IMG/VR virus record: IMGVR_UViG_2861079508_000001
Source: a virus
Taxonomy: Duplodnaviria; Heunggongvirae; Uroviricota; Caudoviricetes
Length of the DNA: 64,000 nucleotides
Reading direction: 5' to 3' (one strand)
Shown here: piece after piece, positions 11,174 to 40,968 of the stretch
How the letters are laid out: each line of letters starts with the position of its first letter
Numbering within the stretch: the stretch's first letter is position 1
Program-made: the position numbers and the translations under genes
The notes under the pieces: model-generated
The model's input: the letters and a program-made list of their open reading frames with translations, nothing else
Told to the model about the DNA's origin: nothing
Databases searched by the model: none

Positions 11174-11500
11174 ATGACTAAAAATACTCGTTTTTCCCCC
11201 GAAGTCCGTCAGAGGGCGATTCGTATGGTTCTGGAAAGTCAGGGCGAATATGACTCACAGTGGGCGGCAATTTGTTCCATTGCCCCAAAGATTGGCTGTA
11301 CACCGGAGACTCTGCGTGTCTGGGTACGCCAGCATGAGCGGGATACCGGAGGCGGTGATGGCGGGCTCACCACCGCTGAACGTCAGCGTCTGAAAGAGCT
11401 GGAACGTGAAAATCGTGAACTGCGCCGCAGTAACGATATCCTTCGCCAGGCTTCCGCTTATTTTGCGAAGGCGGAGTTCGACCGCCTCTGGAAAAAATGA
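11174..11500 (+). CDS. IS3-family transposase OrfA (HTH)
   Basis: 108 aa protein [26 protein letters not shown]... recognised as IS629-type OrfA. Confidence 0.9.
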
Positions 11501-12387
11501 TGCCACTGCTGGATAAGCTGCGTGAGCAGTACGGGGTCGGACCGCTATGCAGCGAACTGCATATTGCCCCGTCAACGTATTACCACTGTCAGCAACAGCG
11601 ACATCATCCGGATAAACGCAGTGCCCGTGCGCAGCGCGATGACTGGCTGAAGAAAGAGATACAGCGCGTATACGATGAAAATCATCAGGTGTACGGTGTG
11701 CGTAAAGTCTGGCGTCAGTTGTTACGGGAAGGTATCAGAGTGGCCAGATGCACTGTGGCACGTCTCATGGCGGTTATGGGACTTGCCGGTGTTCTCCGGG
11801 GTAAAAAGGTCCGTACGACCATCAGCCGGAAAGCCGTTGCCGCAGGCGACCGCGTAAACCGTCAGTTCGTGGCAGAACGACCTGACCAGCTGTGGGTGGC
11901 TGATTTTACTTACGTCAGCACATGGCGGGGCTTCGTCTATGTGGCGTTCATCATTGATGTGTTTGCCGGATACATCGTGGGGTGGCGGGTCTCATCGTCT
12001 ATGGAAACGACATTCGTGCTGGATGCTCTGGAGCAGGCGTTATGGGCCCGTCAACCGTCCGGCACAGTCCATCACAGTGATAAAGGTTCTCAGTATGTAT
12101 CGCTGGCCTACACACAGCGGCTTAAGGAAGCCGGATTACTGGCATCAACAGGAAGTACTGGTGACTCGTATGACAACGCGATGGCGGAGAGCATCAATGG
12201 CCTTTACAAAGCGGAGGTAATACACCGTAAGAGCTGGAAAAACCGGACAGAAGTGGAGCTGGCCACACTCACGTGGGTGGACTGGTATAACAATCGACGA
12301 TTGCTGGAAAGGCTGGGCCATATCCCACCGGCAGAAGCAGAAAAAGCTTATTATGCTTCCATCGGAAACGATGATCTGGCAGCCTGA
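11497..12387 (+). CDS. IS3-family transposase OrfB (DDE integrase domain)
   Basis: 296 aa, DDE-type catalytic domain, overlaps orfA stop. Confidence 0.9.
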
Positions 12388-29014: not shown

Positions 29015-29479
29015 ATGAAGTCTCCCATACTGTTCACTTTCTGTTCTAAAACTATCATGAAATACTCGCTTCTCCCTCTACTAACGTTACCAGTGTTGAT
29101 GCTTACCGCGTGCCAATCACGCCCAATATCAATCCATGACGCCAAACCAGCACCGCAGGCCAAAGTGTTCAAGTATCAAAGCGCAGCGCCAGCTACGTTG
29201 GTGGTAATGAGAGACACAGGTTTTGTAGGAGCTGGATGTGATGCTTCCATTTTCATCAACGGCGAAACTGTCGCAAAACTGGCTACAGGCGAAAAAGCGA
29301 CTTTCCATTTAAATGCCGGAGAATTAATTGTGGGTGCATCTCTTGAAGGTGCAGGTTTATGTGCTCTAAACCCCGCTCGTCAAGAGCGAGAAACGACTCT
29401 GAAGAATGGAGACACAAAAGCGTTCAGGGTGTTCACCAGCAATTCTGGTGACATCGACATTCTGCCAACAACTCTGTGA
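29015..29479 (+). CDS. lipoprotein (candidate superinfection exclusion protein)
   Basis: Signal peptide with lipobox LTAC; start may be internal Met (MKYSLL). Confidence 0.5.
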   Translation: MKSPILFTFCSKTIMKYSLLPLLTLPVLMLTACQSRPISIHDAKPAPQAKVFKYQSAAPATLVVMRDTGFVGAGCDASIFINGETVAKLATGEKATFHLNAGELIVGASLEGAGLCALNPARQERETTLKNGDTKAFRVFTSNSGDIDILPTTL

Positions 29480-29483
29480 TGAC

Positions 29484-30008
29484 ATGACAACCAAAGATAT
29501 TACCTACGGTATCCAAGCTGAACTCTGGCCGCGAGATTACACTAACGTTGAAAAACTACTGATGTTCTGGCGCAGAGAACAAATTCCTGTAAGGGTCACT
29601 CTCGAAGATGGCCAGGCGTTTTGCATGTACGTTTATGGCCTCATGCCATCTCGTAACAAAGTTGACCTTTGCCCAGCCCCTTTTGACAAAGAAAATCGTA
29701 TAAGGCTCCCACTTGAACGCATTAGTACAATTGAATCAGGTGTGGTTGACAGTATCGCTCACGATTTCAAAGGTCGACTAACAGTTCACCCTGATTATGT
29801 CGATAATCGGCCATCACGCCGCGATTTTTTTGCAATTTGCAACCAAGCCTACAAAGCAAACAAATCTATAAGGGTGTACATGGCGGATGGCCGTGAAATT
29901 GAGGGGGTGTCAGCAGGCGCAGATGCTTGTCAGGTTACACTACGTGTCGAGAACGGTAGAAAAATAGTTGTTTTGTTCGATTGGGTTGAACGAATTTTGC
30001 CTTTTTGA
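29484..30008 (+). CDS. hypothetical protein
   Basis: ORF 29406-30008 trimmed to first non-overlapping ATG (MTTKDITYG). Confidence 0.4.
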   Translation: MTTKDITYGIQAELWPRDYTNVEKLLMFWRREQIPVRVTLEDGQAFCMYVYGLMPSRNKVDLCPAPFDKENRIRLPLERISTIESGVVDSIAHDFKGRLTVHPDYVDNRPSRRDFFAICNQAYKANKSIRVYMADGREIEGVSAGADACQVTLRVENGRKIVVLFDWVERILPF

Positions 30009-31763: not shown

Positions 31764-31789
31764 GAGCGCCCACTATGGGCGCTTTTTTT
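31764..31789 (+). terminator. intrinsic terminator (hairpin AGCGCCCACTATGGGCGCT plus T7 run)
   Basis: hairpin followed by TTTTTTT. Confidence 0.65.
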
Positions 31790-31810
31790 CGTTTCCAATA
31801 CACCTACCAT

Positions 31811-31838
31811 AACGCGCCATCATTGGCGCGTTTTTATT
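31811..31838 (+). terminator. intrinsic terminator (AACGCGCCA-TCAT-TGGCGCGTT plus T-run)
   Basis: hairpin and T-run read from sequence. Confidence 0.55.
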
Positions 31839-32244
31839 GTCTTTAACTCACTCCAACAACATAAAAATAAGCGCCAAAATAACGCCATAGACGCGCTTTT
31901 ATATCCTTACCAGTACATGCCCATTACTTAACACATTAACGCGCTTAAAACGCATTATATTGCGCTATAGAGTATGGTTAATCATTGGCTTTTAGTCTTG
32001 CTATGTGATCCGCGTTTATTTGTCGGTGCGGATCGGCATTTTGTTTTGTTCTGTATCCGCTCGCGTATTATGTGCGCGTAATTTTTCACATAATCACACC
32101 ACTTAATCACGTATGTGATTATGCTACGAAAGAAATCTGGATGTCTCAGGCGACGAAAGTCATCATAATTTCCCCCGCTCACCTGTCCGACAACCGCTGG
32201 TTGGATTCCACCAGCTTCCCGATGTTTTTTCTACACAAAGGCGA

Positions 32245-32340
32245 ATGCAGCCGTTTCCCGAAAAAATCCTGGCCGTTCCCCGTCGGCTCATGAATACGTT
32301 CCTCGCCGTTTCTGAAAATTTCCCTGCGGCAGCTGGTGGC
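32245..32340. repeat. array of GCCGTTTCC(C/T)GAAAA-like repeats ending at a Chi octamer
   Basis: Three degenerate copies plus GCTGGTGG at about 32332-32339; related array at 35380-35520. Confidence 0.5.
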
Positions 32341-32375
32341 TATAGAGAAAGGGCCGTTTCTGGCCCTCTTCTCAG

Positions 32376-32933: not shown

Positions 32934-33208
32934 GTGGAAAGTTGCGGTAGCCGGACGGGAACAGGTGGGTTTGTCGGTTGCCTGGAGGTAAGAGGTTGGT
33001 GTTATTAGCCTGAGGGAAACAGGATGGTCATTTAAGACCACCAATGCTGGTGGCCTTAATAATTATCGCCCGATTACGCTAAGGATCTTTTCCTCAACTG
33101 ATTTGTTGTTGCGACTAAACTGCCTTGCGTATCTGATGACAGAAGAGGCGTTTTGCTTTCTGACCATCTCGGCTCTTTCCTTCAGGCGTTTCTTGAAATC
33201 GCCCATAT

Positions 33209-33692: not shown

Positions 33693-33856
33693 AAAGAGGA
33701 TTAAGCGAATACGCTTTCAGGGATTAAGGTGTCGGCAGGAATGCCAGAGGTAATGCGCAGGCCGTACTGACCAATCCAGGTAGTGTTGGTATTCAGGCTG
33801 GAGGCGAATACGGTGTTAACCATATTCATCATGGTTTCAAACACCTCTTCATCAAC

Positions 33857-34096
33857 CTAGCGGAAGTAGTTCTCGATTTTCAGCAGCAGCGGGTCAGTTG
33901 CATCGAGAATGGACTGGTATTGAGTCGCGTACTCGCCGCCGGAGGCATCACCTTTACGCACGATCGTACTGGCCTGGACTTCGGCACCAGTTTCGGTGTT
34001 GTACGTAACAACGGTAATTTTTGCCACATTCTTACCTTCGGCGGTTTCAGAGGCATAGTAAACATCAACTGTCAGTTTTTCGCGTTTAACGGTCAT
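33857..34096 (-). CDS. hypothetical protein, apparently truncated (79 aa) by a premature TAG
   Basis: ORF ends at TAG; protein-like reading frame continues about 49 codons to a TAA at about 33701 followed by a terminator. Confidence 0.45.
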   Translation of the reverse strand: MTVKREKLTVDVYYASETAEGKNVAKITVVTYNTETGAEVQASTIVRKGDASGGEYATQYQSILDATDPLLLKIENYFR

Positions 34097-34687: not shown

Positions 34688-35017
34688 TTACGCGAATACC
34701 TCAAGAAACTCCTGAACGTCCCAATGCTGGACGAGGTGAAGATAGACCTTAGAAATCACGTCATTTTCGCTATCGCATGTGAAGTAGTACTTCTGGCTGC
34801 GGTTGTATGTGTCCACACAAAATTCGCTCATATCCATAAAGTCAGCATCATCACCCAGGTCGCTAATCATCAAAGCAGGTGCATCATCACGAGTCATCAG
34901 CTCCAGCACCCATCTTGAATTAATCAGAGTGGAAGACCAACCTTCCAGCTCATAAAACTGGTCAAACTCTTTTTGAGTCAATTTCTTAATTTGGTTGATG
35001 TCGATATTTGCAAACAT
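34688..35017 (-). CDS. hypothetical acidic protein
   Basis: Start at MFANIDINQ with RBS AAGGA. Confidence 0.5.
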   Translation of the reverse strand: MFANIDINQIKKLTQKEFDQFYELEGWSSTLINSRWVLELMTRDDAPALMISDLGDDADFMDMSEFCVDTYNRSQKYYFTCDSENDVISKVYLHLVQHWDVQEFLEVFA

Positions 35018-35029
35018 AAAGCAATCCTT

Positions 35030-35045
35030 AAACAAGATGTTTTCT
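35030..35045. promoter_or_regulatory. palindromic motif AAACAAGATGTTTTCT
   Basis: between -10-like GATAAT and RBS. Confidence 0.45.
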
Positions 35046-35379
35046 TAATGGTGTTATTATCGCAATAACGCACAGGCGAAAAAGGATTTTATTCCGGTGA
35101 ATGTGGTTTTGGCAGTGAGTTTTCAGGTTCAGTACAGAGTACACTTTTTACATTATTCTGATTTAGTGGCCGAAGATGGCTGGTGGGCAGAATAATCATC
35201 TCCCCGAAAACCTACTGAAATCGATTGTGACCCGTTGGCTGTCTGGCACAATTACGCTGTAACTGGGCATTCAGAGGGAATCCAGCGGTAAGTAGGTTCG
35301 CCTTCACGTGAGCGCCTCTCTTCTTCCCGCACATTACAGGTGGGTAGCCGCAACTCTCCCTCTCGCTATGCCGGTACGC

Positions 35380-35520
35380 CGCCGTTCCTGAACCGGCATC
35401 GAGCCTTTTCCCGAAATCCACACAGGCAACTCGACCGTTTCCCTGAAAACCTCCAGCCGTTCCCCGAAGGCAACCCAGCCGTTTCTGTAGCGGGATGCAA
35501 CCTTTTCCCTGTATGGACCG
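35380..35520. repeat. array of about 6 degenerate (G)CCGTTTCCC(T)GAA-like repeats
   Basis: Units at about 22-bp spacing read from sequence; Chi octamer at about 35179-35186 nearby. Confidence 0.5.
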
Positions 35521-35619
35521 AAGGCTGACCGTAGGGGTGTTACGGGGGATAAAATCAGGAGTTGAATAAATACGAAAAAGGAGGCGACACCCCTCCTTCC
35601 CTCCCCACTTATACATACC

Positions 35620-36580
35620 TGGCTTCTTCGCTATACATGTTGTGTTTTATCTGTCTCAACCTCTCTATAGGCGTTAATGCTCACTCCTTCCAGAATGTTC
35701 TATACGGCAACTATTTCTGTTGGTGAATTGGGTGTGTTGTTCTCTCTGTCGGTGTATGTGGTTTCGTTCGTTTTGCGGTGGTTCTTCTATGGGGTGTTCT
35801 CGTCGTTTTGGTGATTGTTCTTCTCCGTGTATGGAGTAATGGCAGGTGGGCGATTCCTTTCGTTGTTGTGTTTGAGTTGTTTGTCTGGAGTGTGTGAAAG
35901 GCTTTTGCAGTTATTCGTGTATTGGGTAATGGCATTTCCCGTGATTGTTGTGTTTCGTGTCTTTTGGGATTGAGAGAAACCTTGCGGTTACAGGCTTCGT
36001 TGGGGTTTCAGTGATTCTGGTGTTCTTCGCTGTTTGGGGAATGGCGTGTCGTGGGTATCGCGCGTATGAATGTTTTCGGATTGCCTGTGAAAGTTAGGTT
36101 GGTTGTCCGGTAGCCTGGGGAGAAGAGGTGGGTCTTTTCGGTAGCCTGCCATAAAGAGGTTGGTTGTTTTTGGAAATGGCATTTGTGTTATTTAGTTGTT
36201 TTGTTATGCCTGAAAATAAGTTGTTTATATGGTTGTGTAACGCAACGGGAGCGATTTTGAGCGTGTGTTTTTGTTGGTAGTGTGTTGGGTCGTCTGTGGT
36301 GAAAATTGGACGCTGTGGCGCTGTCTGCTGCGTAGAGTTACGGGTATAAGCAGTGATGTGTGAAAACGTCAATTTTTTAGACCAAATCGGGTGAAAGCGT
36401 TGATGTTTCGTTGATCTGTTATTCAGTTGTTTTCTTGATTGTATAAACAACTATAACTTATTGATATTTAAGGATGTGATTGCGGGTATGGAAGAAGAGT
36501 AGTGGCGATCAACGGATTCTTATAGAAAAGAATCAAATTGTGACCGCCATTATCAACTGATTGATTTGTTTACTTGTGTA
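35620..36580. repeat. ORF-free GT-rich, C-depleted region with degenerate repeats
   Basis: No ORF of 60 aa or more on plus strand; strong G+T skew; repeated GGNAATGGC and GGTAGCCTG...AGAGGTNGGT units. Confidence 0.6.
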
Positions 36581-36581
36581 G

Positions 36582-36980
36582 TCAGTTCTCGAAATGAATA
36601 GGGTCAACGTAATGCCGCTCACCGCTTTTACCATTACACAGCACTGTAACTTTCGCCTTTTCACTCCAGGCTGAGTATAGAAAGTTCCCATCAGGTTGAA
36701 CATGGTAACGAGAGAAGTAAACATCGCCGACTGAGGCGTCGAACATGTTCCTATCTTTTTCACTTTGGGCAAGCGAGATGGATATCACCGAATTCCCATT
36801 TGGGGAAACGATTTTAAATTTATTCCCTATATCCATAACAATATTGTAACCAGGTAATTGCTTGTGTGTTTCCGGATCTATTTTCATGCATCGTGGGTAC
36901 ACGATAGTGTTAGGCTCTTCAACTGGCGTGGCATTAGCAGAAAGCACAAAAAATATTAGTGCCAATGGTGCATATTTCAT
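36582..36980 (-). CDS. secreted/periplasmic hypothetical protein
   Basis: N-terminal signal peptide MKYAPLALIFFVLSANA. Confidence 0.5.
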   Translation of the reverse strand: MKYAPLALIFFVLSANATPVEEPNTIVYPRCMKIDPETHKQLPGYNIVMDIGNKFKIVSPNGNSVISISLAQSEKDRNMFDASVGDVYFSRYHVQPDGNFLYSAWSEKAKVTVLCNGKSGERHYVDPIHFEN

Positions 36981-37676: not shown

Positions 37677-39710
37677 TTACTTAACCTGGTGGCCAGGTTT
37701 AGCACCAGCATCCGGGCTTAACAGGAAGATATCTTTCCCGCCGGGGCCAGCAGCCATCACCATGCCTTCAGAGATACCGAAGCGCATTTTACGTGGTGCC
37801 AGGTTAGCCACCATAATGGTGTGACGACCAATCAGTGCCTGTGGATCTGGATAAGCGGAACGGATGCCTGAGAAGACATTACGCTTTTCACCACCGAGAT
37901 CCAGCGTCAGGCGAAGCAGTTTGTCAGAACCTTCTACAAACTCTGCGTTTTCAATCAGCGCCACGCGCAGGTCAACTTTGGCGAAGTCGTCAAAGGTGAT
38001 AGTTTCCTGAATCGGGTCGTCAGCCAGTGGGCCAGTTACCGGTGCGGCTGTGGCTTTCACTTCTTCTTTGGATGCTTCCACCAGTGCTTCAACCTGCTTC
38101 ATATCGATGCGGTTATACAGTGCCTTGAACGGATTCACTTTATGGCCCAGCAGCGGTTGCTGGATACCATCCCAGGTCAGTTCTGTATTCAGGAATGCTT
38201 CTGCACGTTCAGTCAGTTTCGGCAGTACCGGTTTCAGGTACGTCATCAGCACGCGGAACAGGTTAATGCCCATAGAGCAAATCGCCTGCAGATCGGCATC
38301 GCGTCCTTCCTGCTTTGCCACCACCCACGGAGCCTGTTCATCAACATAGCGGTTAGCCAGGTCAGCCAGTGCCATGATTTCACGGATAGCTTTGCCAAAT
38401 TCGCGGCTTTCCCATGCTTCGCCAATCACTTCAGCGGCATCAGTAAAGGTTTTGTACAGTTGCGGGTCAGCCAGTTCGCTTGCCAGCACGCCGTCAAAAC
38501 GCTTGTTGATAAAGCCTGCATTACGGGAGGCCAGGTTAACCACTTTGTTAACGATATCGGCATTCACACGCTGAACGAAATCTTCCAGGTTGAGATCGAT
38601 ATCATCAATGCGCGAAGAGAGTTTCGCAGTGTAGTAGTAACGCAGGCTGTCGGCGTCAAAATGATTCAGCCAGGTGCTGGCTTTAATAAAGGTGCCGCGA
38701 GACTTGGACATCTTCGCGCCGTTCACCGTCACATAGCCGTGAACAAACAGGTTGGTCGGCTTGCGGAAGTTGCTGCCTTCCAGCATGGCAGGCCAGAACA
38801 GGCTGTGGAAGTAAACGATATCTTTGCCGATGAAGTGGTACAGCTCGGCGGTGGAGTCTTTCTTCCAGTATTCGTCGAAGCTGGTAGTGTCGCCGCGTTT
38901 GTCGCACAGATTCTTGAAGGAACCCATGTAGCCAATCGGCGCGTCCAGCCAGACGTAGAAGTATTTGCCCGGTGCGTTCGGAATTTCAAAACCGAAGTAA
39001 GGTGCGTCACGGGAGATATCCCACTGTTGCAGGCCAGATTCAAACCACTCCTGCATTTTGTTTGCCACCTGCTCCTGCAACGCACCGCTGCGGGTCCATG
39101 CCTGCAACATTTCGCTGAAAGAAGGCAGATCAAAGAAGAAGTGTTCGGAATCACGCATTACCGGTGTAGCGCCAGAAACCACTGATTTCGGCTCGATCAG
39201 TTCCGTCGGGCTGTATGTCGCGCCGCAGACTTCACAGTTATCGCCGTATTGATCCGGCGCTTTACATTTCGGGCATGTGCCTTTTACAAAACGGTCCGGC
39301 AGGAACATGCCTTTTTCCGGGTCGTACAGCTGAGAGATGGTGCGGTTTTTAATAAAACCGTTCTCTTTCAGGCGAGTATAGATAAGCTCGGACAACTGAC
39401 GGTTCTCTTCGCTGTGCGTCGAGTGATAGTTGTCATAGCTGATGTTAAAGCCTGCGAAATCAGTCTGATGTTCCTGACTCATTTCGCCAATCATCTGTTC
39501 CGGTGTGATACCAAGCTGCTGTGCTTTCAGCATGATTGGCGTACCGTGGGCATCGTCGGCACAGATGAAATTAACCTCGTGGCCGCGCATTCGCTGGTAA
39601 CGAACCCAGACATCAGCCTGGATGTGCTCCAGCATATGGCCGAGGTGGATTGAGCCGTTAGCGTACGGCAGCGCGCACGTCACCAGAATTTTCTTCGCGA
39701 CTTGGGTCAT
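37677..39710 (-). CDS. metG: methionine--tRNA ligase (enterobacterial host-type)
   Basis: 677 aa from [25 protein letters not shown] (HIGH motif), KMSKS motif, C-terminal tRNA-binding domain; near-identical to Escherichia MetG by recall. Confidence 0.95.
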
Positions 39711-39867
39711 AGTAGGCATTACTTCTTTGTAGTGAAAAGGGGCTTGATAGTAACAAAATGGCCTTATGTCTGCCATGTGATAACAGCATTTCTCATAAAT
39801 GATTAAATGTCGTAGCTGGAGTACACTACAAGGCGACAATTGCGCAAATTAAAATAAAGGAGACGGG

Positions 39868-40968
39868 ATGAGCGAGTCCAAATCGCCGGATGCCCTGAGA
39901 GCAATGGTAGCCGGTACGCTGGCTAATTTTCAGCACCCAACCCTGAAACACAACCTGACTACGCTTAAAGCGTTACACCATGTTGCGTTGATGGATGACA
40001 CACTGCATGTCGAACTAATCATGCCTTTCGTGTGGAATAAGCCTTTTGAAGACCTGAAAGAGCAATGTAGTGGTGATCTGCTCCGTATCACTGGCGCAAA
40101 GGCTATTGACTGGAAGCTGTCGTACAACATTGCCACGCTTAAGCGCGTCAAAAACCAACCAGGCATTAATGGCGTTAAGAACATTATCGCCGTCAGCTCA
40201 GGCAAGGGCGGCGTGGGTAAATCCTCCACGGCGGTAAACCTGGCACTGGCGTTGGCTGCTGAAGGTGCGAAAGTTGGTATTTTGGATGCCGATATCTATG
40301 GTCCATCAATTCCAACCATGCTGGGCGCGGAAAACCAACGTCCAACCTCACCGGACGGTACTCACATGGCACCTATCATGTCTCATGGCCTGGCAACCAA
40401 CTCTATTGGTTATCTGGTCACCGACGACAATGCAATGGTGTGGCGTGGACCGATGGCCAGCAAGGCGCTGATGCAGATGTTGCAGGAAACACTGTGGCCT
40501 GATCTGGACTATCTCGTTCTCGATATGCCACCGGGCACTGGTGATATTCAATTGACGCTGGCGCAGAACATTCCTGTAACTGGTGCGGTTGTGGTAACTA
40601 CGCCGCAAGACATCGCGCTGATCGATGCGAAGAAAGGCATTGTGATGTTCGAAAAAGTCGAAGTGCCGGTACTGGGTATCGTTGAAAACATGAGTGTGCA
40701 TATTTGCAGTAACTGCGGTCATCACGAGCCAATTTTTGGCACCGGTGGCGCACAGAAACTGGCCGAGAAATACAACACGCAGTTGTTAGGCCAAATGCCA
40801 CTTCATATCTCTCTTCGTGAAGATCTGGATAACGGAACACCAACCGTTATTAGTCGTCCAGATAGTGAATTTACGGCTATTTATCGTGACCTCGCAGATC
40901 GCGTTGCTGCCCAAATGTATTGGCAAGGTGAAGTAATACCTGGCGAAATCGCATTCCGCGCAGTGTGA
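39868..40968 (+). CDS. apbC: Fe-S cluster carrier ATPase ApbC/Mrp
   Basis: Walker [11 protein letters not shown] and CxxC motif CSNCGH; divergent from metG as in enterobacterial chromosomes. Confidence 0.95.

Follow-up and report, generated by a model that had tools for sequence, protein, structure and literature searches.

Clinical E. coli, Klebsiella, Salmonella and Enterobacter commonly harbour SSU5/pHCM2-like phage-plasmids, which carry genes for resistance and defence; to our knowledge, no lytic origin has been mapped in them. The origin of phage P4 consists of ori and the cis replication region crr, both with iterons bound by the alpha protein. Transcript-dependent origins include oriF and oriG of T4 (a promoter plus an unwinding element, with the R-loop removed by UvsW), ColE1 with its RNA II, and the lambda ori with its transcriptional activation. 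Rho-dependent terminators and their rut sites are represented by lambda tR1 and by long untranslated leaders, protein-sequestering RNAs by CsrB and CrcZ, with A-rich Hfq/Crc sites as known motifs. Replication of cluster A mycobacteriophage plasmids depends in cis on a transcribed non-coding region (Wetzel et al. 2020, PMC7157519), and the RNAs of these origins are expressed in lysogens, lie beside parABS and serve prophage maintenance (PMC7157519).

The DNA analysed here, a stretch of 64 kb to which we refer as the window, derives from an SSU5/pHCM2-like phage-plasmid and is not simply the phage as which the first-pass annotation treated it. The largest gene-free conserved stretch of these elements is a gap of about 1.5 kb beside the cargo hotspot. 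This gap constitutes a cis-acting unit that is non-coding and conserved among SSU5-like phage-plasmids, and overall it looks like a switched-off early transcription unit with adjoining protein-binding arrays. A literature search on SSU5/pHCM2-type phage-plasmids and lytic origins found the locus mentioned nowhere, and annotation pipelines leave it blank or fill it with spurious ORFs.

A conserved non-coding unit

The ORF-free stretch described in the first-pass annotation at 35620-36580 is real, although its extent was underestimated: the gap spans 35036-36581 and thus reaches 580 nt further to the left. PGAP places no annotation at all within 35018-36581 of the near-identical plasmid pSLy3, and an equally blank gap is present in eight of ten divergent relatives. 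To one side of the unit lies the hotspot of variable cargo, to the other a series of small early genes. Gap and skew recur in PLSDB, in more than 800 plasmids that represent at least six genera, and the conservation of position, length and composition extends to 242 E. coli plasmids and 12 phage records. Comparison with related phages, which had been proposed as a check, shows that the whole unit is kept across Enterobacteriaceae phage-plasmids, with position, length, base composition and the absence of genes as the conserved features. Some relatives lack the region, one of them through an IS3-family insertion.

The borders of the unit are well defined. On the right, a box GTGGCGATCAACGGA...TTGTGACCGCCA (36502-36557) is almost invariant in divergent relatives; homology stops about 10 bp beyond it, where variable cargo begins, many E. 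coli plasmid matches end at about 36560-36572 of the window, and the genes to its right differ lineage by lineage. The left edge is formed at 35025-35085 by the minus-strand promoter (extended -10 TGCGATAAT) and operator of the next gene (34688-35017). It is followed by a Chi-containing plus-strand repeat GCTGGTGGGCAGAATAATCATCTCCC (35179-35204), whose second copy lies at 33046-33071 and whose Chi octamer is kept in most relatives. The boxes GTTACGGGGGAT and CCCTACGGTCAG (35523-35560, minus sense) are likewise conserved and adjoin a 36-bp stretch of about 70% A+T; CCCTACGGTCAG is retained even in the divergent lineage L095. Within the skewed body a deeply conserved core (35758-35802) is the only interior block that still aligns to the most divergent lineage.

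The longest open frames in the gap encode 56 aa on the plus and 118 aa on the minus strand. The gap is non-coding, since column variability among 74 unique relatives has no 3-base periodicity (power ratio at most 1.6 everywhere), whereas the neighbouring gene, used as a positive control, is strongly periodic (power 9-19). The earlier view that the region is non-coding and its tracked ORFs spurious is thereby borne out, and a protein-coding gene on either strand was rejected; ORF boundaries are not conserved either.

A structured non-coding RNA, one of the candidates first put forward and for which an Rfam search had been suggested, did not withstand closer inspection. No Rfam family matched at gathering score, the two matches at E<=10 were at chance level, and a scan for tRNA and tmRNA found none. 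The 781-nt minus-sense RNA folds no better than its shuffles (z-score -0.49). Covariation was assessed for the left third plus terminator (35174-35639) in 16 diverse sequences, in which RNAalifold supported no structure besides the terminator hairpin and none across the A repeats described below. A structured RNA was therefore rejected, the terminator hairpin being the sole structure supported by covariation in the part assessed.

Strand skew, repeats and predicted minus-strand transcription

The plus strand had been described as rich in G+T and depleted of C, and this is confirmed for 35620-36350 (T 39.8%, G 31.3%, A 14.8%, C 14.1%). The right 800 nt or so of the gap have a G+T content of 0.72-0.74 and depart by over 7 SD from the mean of the window (0.499, SD 0.030, per 700-nt window across the 64 kb). 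The skew analysis that had been recommended places the maximum for 700-nt windows here (0.724, start 35714), and nowhere else in the 64 kb does G+T deviate by more than 0.12 from the mean. The left third of the gap (35200-35560) has the opposite GC bias (C > G on the plus strand), no G+T excess and repeats of its own. The skew is kept in nearly all of about 80 related loci and persists in lineages too divergent to align. Among rare variants in 24 close relatives, those eroding the skew outnumber those building it (80 versus 53, small numbers polarised by minor allele), which suggests that selection maintains it, if only as a weak hint; mutation bias building the skew left no sign in the same relatives.

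The degenerate repeats noted earlier are likewise real and non-random, and comprise three families of direct repeats far above chance. Four C repeats GTTCTTCnCnGTgTATnGgGTAATGGC, of which the previously reported unit GGNAATGGC is the 3' end, lie on the plus strand at 35817-35843, 35910-35933, 36022-36045 and 36163-36180. Their core GCCATT occurs four times against 0.14 expected (0 of 500 shuffles); relatives have five to six copies, and L095 retains TGCCATT[AC]CC repeats. Three B repeats, CGGTAGCCTG-N6-AGAGGTGGGT, lie on the plus strand at a spacing of about 31 bp (36077-36164) and form a low-entropy block, in which GGTAGCCTG-N6-AGAGGTNGGT recurs at 36108 and 36139 with a degenerate third copy at 36077. 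Six A repeats of the form (C/G)RGRAAMGG[C/T], for instance TTCGGGGAACGGCTG, lie 20-32 bp apart on the minus strand (35380-35513), just past the predicted terminator.

The A and B families recur as a pair 3.1 kb away, flanking the gene at 32858-32376. A second cluster of three B repeats (32945-33033, plus strand) stands directly upstream of the -35 of this gene's promoter, and four to five further A repeats (32250-32370, minus strand) directly past its stop codon. In about 100 kb of the close relative Cyrano (8.5-108.4 kb) these are the only two loci with A and B. The proposed copy at about 36.06-36.17 kb of the architecture at 32.92-33.03 kb is real because both share the B repeats, with GGTAGCCTG-N6-AGAGGTNGGT at 32946, 32976 and 33003 and a chance expectation of 0.00. 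Beyond the A/B repeats the two loci share only short promoter-module matches. A decayed paralogue of the gene at 32858-32376 was rejected, as no homology exists between it and the skewed body.

The conserved signals, namely the promoter/operator module, the predicted promoter P2 and the terminator hairpin, all indicate minus-strand transcription, and the transcribed strand is probably the A/C-rich minus strand, judging by these signals. At the head lies a predicted early-type promoter with operator, P1/O1 (36416-36455, minus strand), composed of a -10-like TATAGT or TACAAT followed by AAGAAAACAAC. Modules of this type precede about ten minus-strand genes, while here no ORF is found downstream; L095, the most divergent lineage, has a perfect copy of the module, GCAATAACACACACAAGAAAACAACTTGTTT. 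Two ATCAACG direct repeats 11 nt apart (36398-36415, minus strand), unique in the window and in phage Cyrano and conserved in the alignment and in L095, possibly constitute an activator site. They lie upstream of P2 (36342-36380, minus strand), which combines an A-tract, the -35 TTGACG (36372-36367), a 17-nt spacer and a weak -10 TTATAC (36349-36344), with a PWM score of 6.4 and a predicted start at about 36337. Nearly every lineage, L095, L098 and L099 among them, has the pattern TTGAC[AG]-N17-T[TA]A[CT]A[CT] at a constant 62-63 nt after the O1 core, and P2 is the lowest-entropy stretch of the region.

The body of the predicted untranslated RNA (35620-36341, minus strand) consists of 40% A, 31-33% C, 14% U and 13-14% G and contains the two longest C-rich/G-poor minus-sense runs of the whole window. 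Inside it lies a conserved, operator-like module O2, AAACAACTTATTTTCAGG...AACAAAACAACTAAATAACAC (36185-36226, minus strand), with the equivalent AGATAACAACTTGTTT...CACAAGAAAACAA in L095; enrichment of half-operators in the region is marginal. At the end stands a hairpin resembling an intrinsic terminator (35565-35601, minus strand), with a G-rich 5' arm GGGAAGGAGGGG, a loop, CCUCC and then UUUUUCGUAUUUAUU. RNAalifold retains its stem in the 16 diverse sequences through G-C/G-U/A-U changes, with one compensatory pair in four sequences, and its energy is -13 to -17 kcal/mol in the E. coli and Klebsiella lineages. The stem pairs only as minus-strand RNA, because its many G-U pairs would be C-A mismatches on the plus strand. 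The predicted RNA, A/C-rich and G/U-poor, would be 0.77-0.88 kb long; the edges of the skew (about 35640-36450) coincide with this transcript (36440 or 36337 down to 35565), and B and C lie within the DNA predicted to be transcribed, while A follows the terminator.

In the available expression data the region is nearly silent. In lysogens grown in LB CYRAN_103 has 0 FPKM, and expression of the region ranges from 0 to 14 FPKM across ten samples. In macrophage samples P1/P2 stay at 0-14 FPKM, while values for the neighbouring gene rise to about 200 FPKM. Readings for the cargo gene CYRAN_102 in the LF82 data are about 50-580 FPKM, those for CYRAN_103, 110 nt further on, 0-14 (mostly 0-7).

A candidate lytic origin and competing readings

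We tentatively interpret the region as a transcription-activated origin for lytic replication, and would give this reading a probability of roughly 35%. On this interpretation the unstructured RNA, the protein-binding array and the replication origin, which had been listed as separate candidates, are parts of one unit rather than alternatives. In the plasmid state the origin would be silent and replication would start from the RepA origin about 33 kb away. Once the early promoters fire, P1/O1 and P2, the latter with a strong -35 and a weak -10, would drive the untranslated minus-strand RNA across the repeat-bound DNA; its near two-letter A+C composition would leave it unable to fold until the conserved G-rich hairpin and U-tract at its end. 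Transcription would halt at this hairpin, beside an A+T stretch and the A repeats, and the halted transcription might open or prime the DNA for the phage's own helicase, primase, Pol III alpha, RNase H and UvsW-type machinery. An auxiliary role like that of crr at the P4 origin may fall to the second A+B pair, 3.1 kb off.

Several observations count in favour of an origin: the conserved non-coding region, a skew that outlives the sequence, the minus-strand signals, the repeats, silence in lysogens and the variant bias toward erosion. At least three direct repeats of about 17-31 bp in one orientation, as in iteron origins, are present (chance expectation 0.00-0.14), and P1/O1, P2 and the minus-strand terminator together predict transcription into or through them, as in transcript-activated origins. 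The annotation of Cyrano includes helicase, primase, Pol III alpha, ligase, RNase H, UvsW, UvsY, a gp32-like SSB and RecA; it names no lytic initiator or origin. The plasmid RepA origin lies elsewhere and has different iterons. The gap itself was rejected as the IncFIB RepA plasmid origin, since the CTCTATAGTGGAT-like iterons, DnaA boxes and GATC cluster of Cyrano sit at repA, some 33 kb from the gap; a single 11-mer is all that the gap has in common with these features, and it contains two GATC sites.

Other observations count against an origin. DnaA boxes and a GATC cluster are absent from the gap, and IHF sites are absent or trivial. The A+T-rich stretches are modest (36 bp of about 70% at 35550-35585; 75-82% at 36180-36240 and 36415-36480). 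The cumulative GC/TA skew of the genome bears no origin signature and is swamped by gene orientation. Neither a 700-nt RNA of A and C only nor this particular composition is required of an origin, and, to judge by nearest-neighbour energies, the RNA of neither strand would be expected to favour R-loops. P1/P2 are near zero in macrophages, and some relatives lack the region.

A rather unlikely alternative is a transcription barrier, in which Rho would load over a very long rut zone, with an intrinsic terminator as back-up, and would block transcription from the cargo hotspot or from the upstream 40-kb operon, so that the separately regulated small early genes are shielded. Over 700 nt the ratio of C to G in the minus sense is 2.2-2.6. 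When 78-nt windows are required to have C>=28% and G<=15%, the two longest runs of the minus strand fall here, and the stretch is untranslated and unstructured; compared with the at least about 78 nt of untranslated C>G RNA with little structure expected of a rut site, it offers 700 nt (C 31-33%, G 13-14%, z -0.49). A conserved terminator stands at its end and the cargo hotspot directly upstream, and the drop from CYRAN_102 to CYRAN_103 fits such a barrier. This drop, however, precedes the start of the skewed body. The head of the stretch also has two conserved promoters at fixed spacing, which a barrier could do without; this reading leaves the three repeat families and the second A+B pair around a gene unexplained, and Rho loading does not require that U be depleted as much as G.

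It is likewise unlikely, we think, that the region encodes a trans-acting early RNA, whose four to six UGCCAUUACYC motifs, freed at the terminator, would titrate a single-strand RNA-binding factor, with Rho, a phage protein or a GU-rich small RNA as possible targets. A defined promoter-to-terminator unit without ORF, a short motif repeated in an unstructured setting, and a length and composition that stay constant while the sequence drifts would suit such an RNA. Its level, however, is very low in all available RNA-seq conditions, Hfq-type (ARN)n and CrcZ-type AAnAAnAA motifs show no enrichment over shuffles (1 versus 1.3 and 3 versus 2.3), and no complement or antisense partner of the C motif was found in the window or in about 100 kb of Cyrano (8.5-108.4 kb). 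The B repeats, moreover, also front a promoter, where DNA binding is the simpler explanation. A CsrB/CrcZ-type protein-sequestering RNA was rejected outright ((ARN)4 and AAnAAnAA at shuffle level, 0-14 FPKM in ten samples).

We are more doubtful still about a purely DNA-level array, in which phage transcription factors would bind A, B and C, or these would form a site for partition or looping, and the early genes on either side would be controlled in this way; the strand bias would be a by-product of many G/T-rich sites in one direction. The position of the B repeats relative to a real promoter at the second locus (about -45 to -135), the repeat blocks as the best-conserved parts, and operator palindromes of a dispersed regulon inside the region are consistent with it. 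The skew nevertheless fills the poorly conserved spacers too and persists in L095-L099, where B repeats are undetectable, and the strand-specific terminator and P2 are left unexplained.

Quite improbable is a decoy variant of the RNA reading, according to which an early-lytic, unfoldable RNA of 0.8 kb, almost wholly A and C, soaks up a host single-strand RNA-binding machine, most plausibly Rho. If true, silencing of the phage's long unidirectional operons would be relieved, and the RNA would be a counterpart of the P4 Psu protein.

An RfaH-dependent leader, with the B cores as ops elements on the non-template strand of a rightward plus-sense transcript into cargo such as a DUF262 gene, is very improbable. 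The B core, on the plus strand, matches ops at nine of ten bases, and the two copies of CGGTAGCCTG at 36108 and 36139 keep C3-G8, T11 and G12, which are required for RfaH recruitment and pausing (PMC5995543). Every aligned relative has at least one such copy, and in L013, as in large Klebsiella plasmids, the next gene after the element encodes DUF262 on the plus strand. Against this, the match was spotted post hoc, no plus-strand promoter was found upstream, and the rightward genes are on the minus strand in the window and in most relatives, so that the residues of an ops/JUMPStart leader are there and its place on the non-template strand downstream of a long-operon promoter is not. The copies at the second locus are altered at T11 and A7, positions strongly defective when substituted, even if the bases found here are not exactly those assayed.

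Hidden small genes (hydrophobic peptides on the plus, low-complexity ones on the minus strand), or else a decaying pseudogene or neutral spacer, can practically be dismissed: relatives repeatedly have plus-strand ORFs of 30-120 aa whose products are rich in V/F/L/G/W, one of these ORFs is annotated in two records and indels are partly multiples of 3, but period-3 variability is absent throughout (at most 1.6; control gene 9-19), ORF starts and ends shift from lineage to lineage, starts inspected by eye lack a Shine-Dalgarno, such peptides are the default output of G/T-rich DNA, and neutral decay would not be expected to produce the same extreme skew in non-aligning lineages.

Comparison with known systems

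The region is a concrete and testable candidate for a lytic origin or for early-transcription control in SSU5/pHCM2-like phage-plasmids. Its composition is unusual in that the predicted transcript is almost two-lettered (A+C) and is kept so in lineages beyond alignment; whichever explanation is true would show a use of A+C RNA or of strand-asymmetric DNA.

Compared with rut sites, the predicted RNA is similarly C-rich, G-poor, unstructured and untranslated, but it exceeds a usual rut site about tenfold in length, is equally depleted of U, is equipped with promoters of its own and is packed with repeats. As in CsrB and CrcZ, several copies of a short motif lie in a dedicated, here predicted, non-coding transcript, whereas A-rich Hfq/Crc motifs are not enriched and expression is low in the available data.

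Among origins, P4 offers a parallel in its gene-free cis sites in a plasmid-capable phage and in the same direct-repeat families at two loci a few kb apart (here 3.1 kb). In contrast to P4, no alpha-like primase-helicase is adjacent and the repeat sequences are unrelated, while P4 is not known to have a counterpart of the 0.7-kb strand-skewed body whose transcription and function are predicted here. As in the T4, ColE1 and lambda origins, a predicted promoter points to repeats and an A+T stretch, and the end of the transcript is G-rich. With T4 the similarity extends to UvsW, RNase H, UvsY and a gp32-like protein, all annotated in Cyrano; the RNA, however, is 10 times longer than a T4 origin transcript and C-rich instead of G-rich, and unlike in ColE1 there is no sign of structured control of the RNA I/RNA II type. 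The prophage origins of cluster A mycobacteriophages differ in that the present region is silent in lysogens, which already possess a RepA origin, but share with it the principle of a non-coding phage-plasmid region that is transcribed, here by prediction, and in which no ORF is involved.

Base composition and the lack of coding signal

The plus strand of the gene-free region is strongly skewed. At 35620-36350 it consists of 39.8% T, 31.3% G, 14.8% A and 14.1% C, and G+T peaks at 0.724 per 700 nt against a window mean of 0.499 (SD 0.030); elsewhere in the 64 kb the deviation never exceeds 0.12 in windows of this size. The G+T-rich, C-depleted strand described in the first-pass annotation is thereby confirmed. 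The extent proposed there, 35620-36580, is indeed gene-free, but the true gap spans 35036-36581 and the skew only about 35640-36450. In the left third of the gap (35200-35560) the GC bias is reversed (C exceeds G on the plus strand) and G+T is not in excess.

PGAP calls no genes between 35018 and 36581 in pSLy3, a plasmid 99% identical to the window, and likewise none in most of the divergent relatives; the short ORFs found here are placed by depositor-annotated records. Column variability in an alignment of the gap from 78 loci (74 unique sequences) lacks 3-base periodicity, with power ratios of at most 1.6 in all 90-nt windows, versus a power of 9-19 and codon-position entropies of 0.51, 0.39 and 1.10 for the neighbouring gene of the same loci, which served as positive control. 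Hydrophobic plus-strand ORFs recur among relatives, their starts and ends differing by lineage, and are the default translation of G/T-rich DNA. Because periodicity is absent, ORF ends shift and PGAP leaves the interval blank, the gap is non-coding, as earlier suspected from the lack of a plausible ORF; the tracked ORFs were rightly regarded as spurious.

Genomic setting and anatomy of the unit

The 1.6 kb around the gap match 242 E. coli plasmids and no chromosome, the phages Cyrano, CMS-2020a, PhiR41_1 and SSU5, and 838 PLSDB plasmids from Klebsiella, Escherichia, Enterobacter, Salmonella, Citrobacter, Cronobacter and other hosts. Most matched plasmids are about 105-120 kb, and all 11 PLSDB plasmids with typing read are IncFIB. 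These plasmid and phage matches indicate that the window belongs to an SSU5/pHCM2-like phage-plasmid. In Cyrano, a close relative with annotation, the gap is located towards the end of a block of ~40 kb whose genes nearly all run in one direction (the window's minus strand), about 33 kb from repA.

Several other features of the window deserve mention. Full-length, host-type metG (methionyl-tRNA synthetase; 37677-39839, minus) and apbC/mrp (39868-40968, plus) are annotated as a pair in Cyrano and pSLy3 too. A 131-aa CDS of both relatives is broken into 79-aa and 47-aa ORFs in the window (33701-34096, minus) by a frameshift, a stop or a sequencing error. At 11455-11571 (plus), Rfam identifies an ALIL pseudoknot (RF01497, 120 bits), by which IS3-family insertion sequences direct frameshifting; an IS is therefore inserted in the tail gene region.

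Read along the minus strand, from right to left, the region starts at a nearly invariant box (36557-36502). Lineage homology ends about 10 bp to its right, and unrelated cargo lies beyond (36557-36600 and rightward; L003, L004, L013): a lipoprotein-like gene in the window, a coiled-coil protein in Cyrano, and in other lineages IS1 with an autotransporter, DUF262, a GIY-YIG nuclease and others. We therefore regard this flank as a cargo hotspot. Klebsiella plasmids of 190-260 kb, of which the two checked are typed IncFIB/IncU, share the region's right 460 bp (36108-36569); in them a DUF262 gene lies about 330-460 bp downstream, and the segment was probably carried there along with this gene.

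The promoter/operator module P1/O1 (36455-36416, minus) is shared with about ten minus-strand genes of the window, where an extended -10 (TGnGATAAT type) is followed by AAGAAAACAAnTTGTTTA at about +10 to +25, a ribosome-binding site and ATG. P1/O1 is the sole copy without a downstream ORF, and in the most divergent lineage (L095) the module at this place is a perfect copy. Two ATCAACG repeats one helical turn apart (36415-36398, minus) precede a second, predicted promoter, P2 (36380-36342, minus), composed of an A-tract, TTGACG, 17 nt and TTATAC. The pattern TTGAC[AG]-N17-T[TA]A[CT]A[CT] occurs in nearly all lineages, always 62-63 nt past the operator core, and P2 falls within the least variable part of the region by alignment entropy. 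As its -10 is weak, an activator may be required.

The body (36341-35620, minus) is A/C-rich in the minus sense. Within it lie a second operator-like module, O2 (36226-36185, minus), B repeats in three copies spaced by about 31 bp (36164-36077), C repeats in four copies (36180-35817) and a deeply conserved core (35802-35758). At 35601-35565 (minus) stands a hairpin whose 5' arm is G-rich, with UUUUUCGUAUUUAUU after it. In 16 diverse sequences its stem is retained via G-C, G-U and A-U changes, with one pair altered on both sides in four; since the opposite strand would have C-A mismatches in place of the many G-U pairs, the hairpin is minus-sense-specific. With -13 to -17 kcal/mol, it is stronger in the E. 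coli and Klebsiella lineages than in the Salmonella/Enterobacter lineage; it was not found in L095-L099. Further left follow a short A+T-rich stretch with two conserved boxes (35585-35523), six A repeats, (C/G)RGRAAMGG[C/T], 20-32 bp apart (35513-35380, minus), without conserved RNA structure across the same number of diverse sequences, a Chi-containing repeat (35204-35179, plus), and the promoter/operator of the next gene (35085-35025, minus). Chi octamers (GCTGGTGG) number 16 in the 64 kb (7 plus, 9 minus) versus about 2 expected, a density similar to that of the host chromosome. Three plus-strand copies (32332, 33046, 35179) fall inside 3 kb, and the last is kept in most relatives.

The skew edges coincide with a predicted transcript that starts at about 36440 or 36337 and ends at about 35565. 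This minus-strand RNA would measure 0.77-0.88 kb, with 40% A, 31-33% C, 14% U and 13-14% G, and contain the window's two longest C-rich/G-poor minus-sense runs. The earlier candidate of a structured non-coding RNA loses ground, as Rfam returned no match for the predicted RNA and 781 nt of it fold (-123 kcal/mol) no better than dinucleotide shuffles (z -0.49). A re-analysis of LF82 RNA-seq gives log2(FPKM+5) for Cyrano ORFs (PMC9928086). CYRAN_103, the head of the predicted RNA (window 36094-36450), has 0 FPKM in both LB samples and 1-14 in the other eight, so the unit is silent in the plasmid state; the cargo gene CYRAN_102, 110 nt upstream, has about 50-580 FPKM (PMC9928086). CYRAN_105, just downstream of the gap, reaches about 200 FPKM in macrophages (PMC9928086), and the unit's head is not turned on along with it.

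Conservation and the second locus

Ten divergent relatives (67-76% identical) keep both the gap, at 1.4-2.0 kb, and the skew (G+T 0.65-0.80 across 700-800 nt). Among 84 further loci gathered via the neighbouring gene, nearly all reaching far enough upstream have a 600-nt window with G+T of 0.68-0.75 at the equivalent place. The lineage L095-L099 (31 Klebsiella and Citrobacter plasmids) likewise keeps the skew, while its flanking protein is just 51-52% identical and alignment is limited to the promoter modules and a single interior block of 45 nt; composition and length are thus conserved where sequence is not. In 24 close E. coli variants, 80 rare alleles lower the skew versus 53 raising it, small numbers with polarity taken from allele frequency. 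Purifying selection on composition would give this bias, and these alleles do not suggest a mutation bias building the skew. All or part of the region is absent in four or five loci, replaced by an IS3-family element in L058. SSU5 and one Enterobacter plasmid (2104-2346 in both loci, L009 and L012) have an extra 80-aa plus-strand gene at the equivalent of about 35090-35200; the gap can therefore take up insertions in its left part.

The first-pass annotation had noted that the architecture at 32.92-33.03 kb is copied in the gap, and the B repeats at 33033-32945 and 36164-36077 substantiate this. The former immediately precede the promoter -35 of gene 32858-32376, directly past whose stop codon A repeats recur (32370-32250). 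The layout of B, about 0.6 kb, and A thus occurs twice, at a distance of 3.1 kb, one copy enclosing a gene and the other the non-coding body. Beyond short promoter-module matches the enclosed stretches have nothing else in common, and across 8.5-108.4 kb of Cyrano A and B are confined to these loci. The second A cluster lies in another gene-free stretch of about 600 nt between convergent genes (31769-32374), which also has two Chi octamers (32332 plus, 32208 minus), several palindromes and two terminator-like hairpins.

The operator palindrome core AAACAAnTTGTTT has 23 copies in the window versus 1.2 expected, throughout 23.7-55.8 kb. Most of about ten gene-upstream copies inspected lie just downstream of an extended -10, before a minus-strand gene. 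The set looks like a dispersed regulon, comparable to the dispersed C1 operators of P1. An annotated 'transcriptional regulator' (29406-30005, plus) is a full-length FljA-family protein (Pfam PF03614, E 2.5e-84; repressor of phase-1 flagellin), and its C-terminus gives an Hfq-like match below threshold; the protein is a candidate binder of the palindromes, whether as DNA or RNA.

A possible lytic origin and its alternatives

The pattern supports a dedicated, conserved minus-strand transcription unit without product, interleaved with and trailed by three direct-repeat families. Our tentative reading, at a probability of roughly one in three, is a lytic-cycle replication origin that its own minus-strand transcript would activate or prime. 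The RepA origin serves the plasmid state. We favour this because Cyrano has a large annotated replisome and T4-type recombination set (helicase, primase, Pol III alpha, RNase H, UvsW, UvsY, a gp32-like protein, RecA) without a known lytic origin or initiator, and because the iterons of the RepA origin differ. However, the A+T-rich element is weak, and it is not evident why a lytic origin should have 700 nt composed only of A+C.

That composition is best explained if the body is a Rho-loading stretch halting transcription, which leaves the promoters and repeats unexplained and is on balance unlikely. The promoter-to-terminator unit and the repeated RNA motif would suit a trans-acting RNA, a doubtful proposition given very low expression and the lack of known binding motifs. 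A pure DNA-binding array is rather improbable, as it does not explain the skew in unconserved spacers. An RfaH ops leader is very improbable: the B core agrees with the ops element at each position shown to matter (PMC5995543), probably by coincidence, but is oriented against the predicted transcript, and no promoter for it was found on the plus strand. Hidden genes or a neutral spacer, equally improbable, are ruled out by the periodicity test and the persistent skew.

We class the gap as a phage region that acts in cis, as a control element or an origin, and whose predicted two-letter transcript is unusual and selected. No mention of it was found in the literature on SSU5, pHCM2 and phage-plasmids. 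A lytic origin is further favoured by its parallels: repeat arrays with a distant second copy, such as A and B at their two loci, recall ori/crr of P4, and a promoter directed towards repeats and an A+T stretch is reminiscent of the origin types of lambda, T4 and ColE1. Among published systems, the closest is the RNA-based prophage origin of mycobacterial phage-plasmids (PMC7157519), which is expressed in lysogens and serves plasmid maintenance; the gap unit would differ in both respects.
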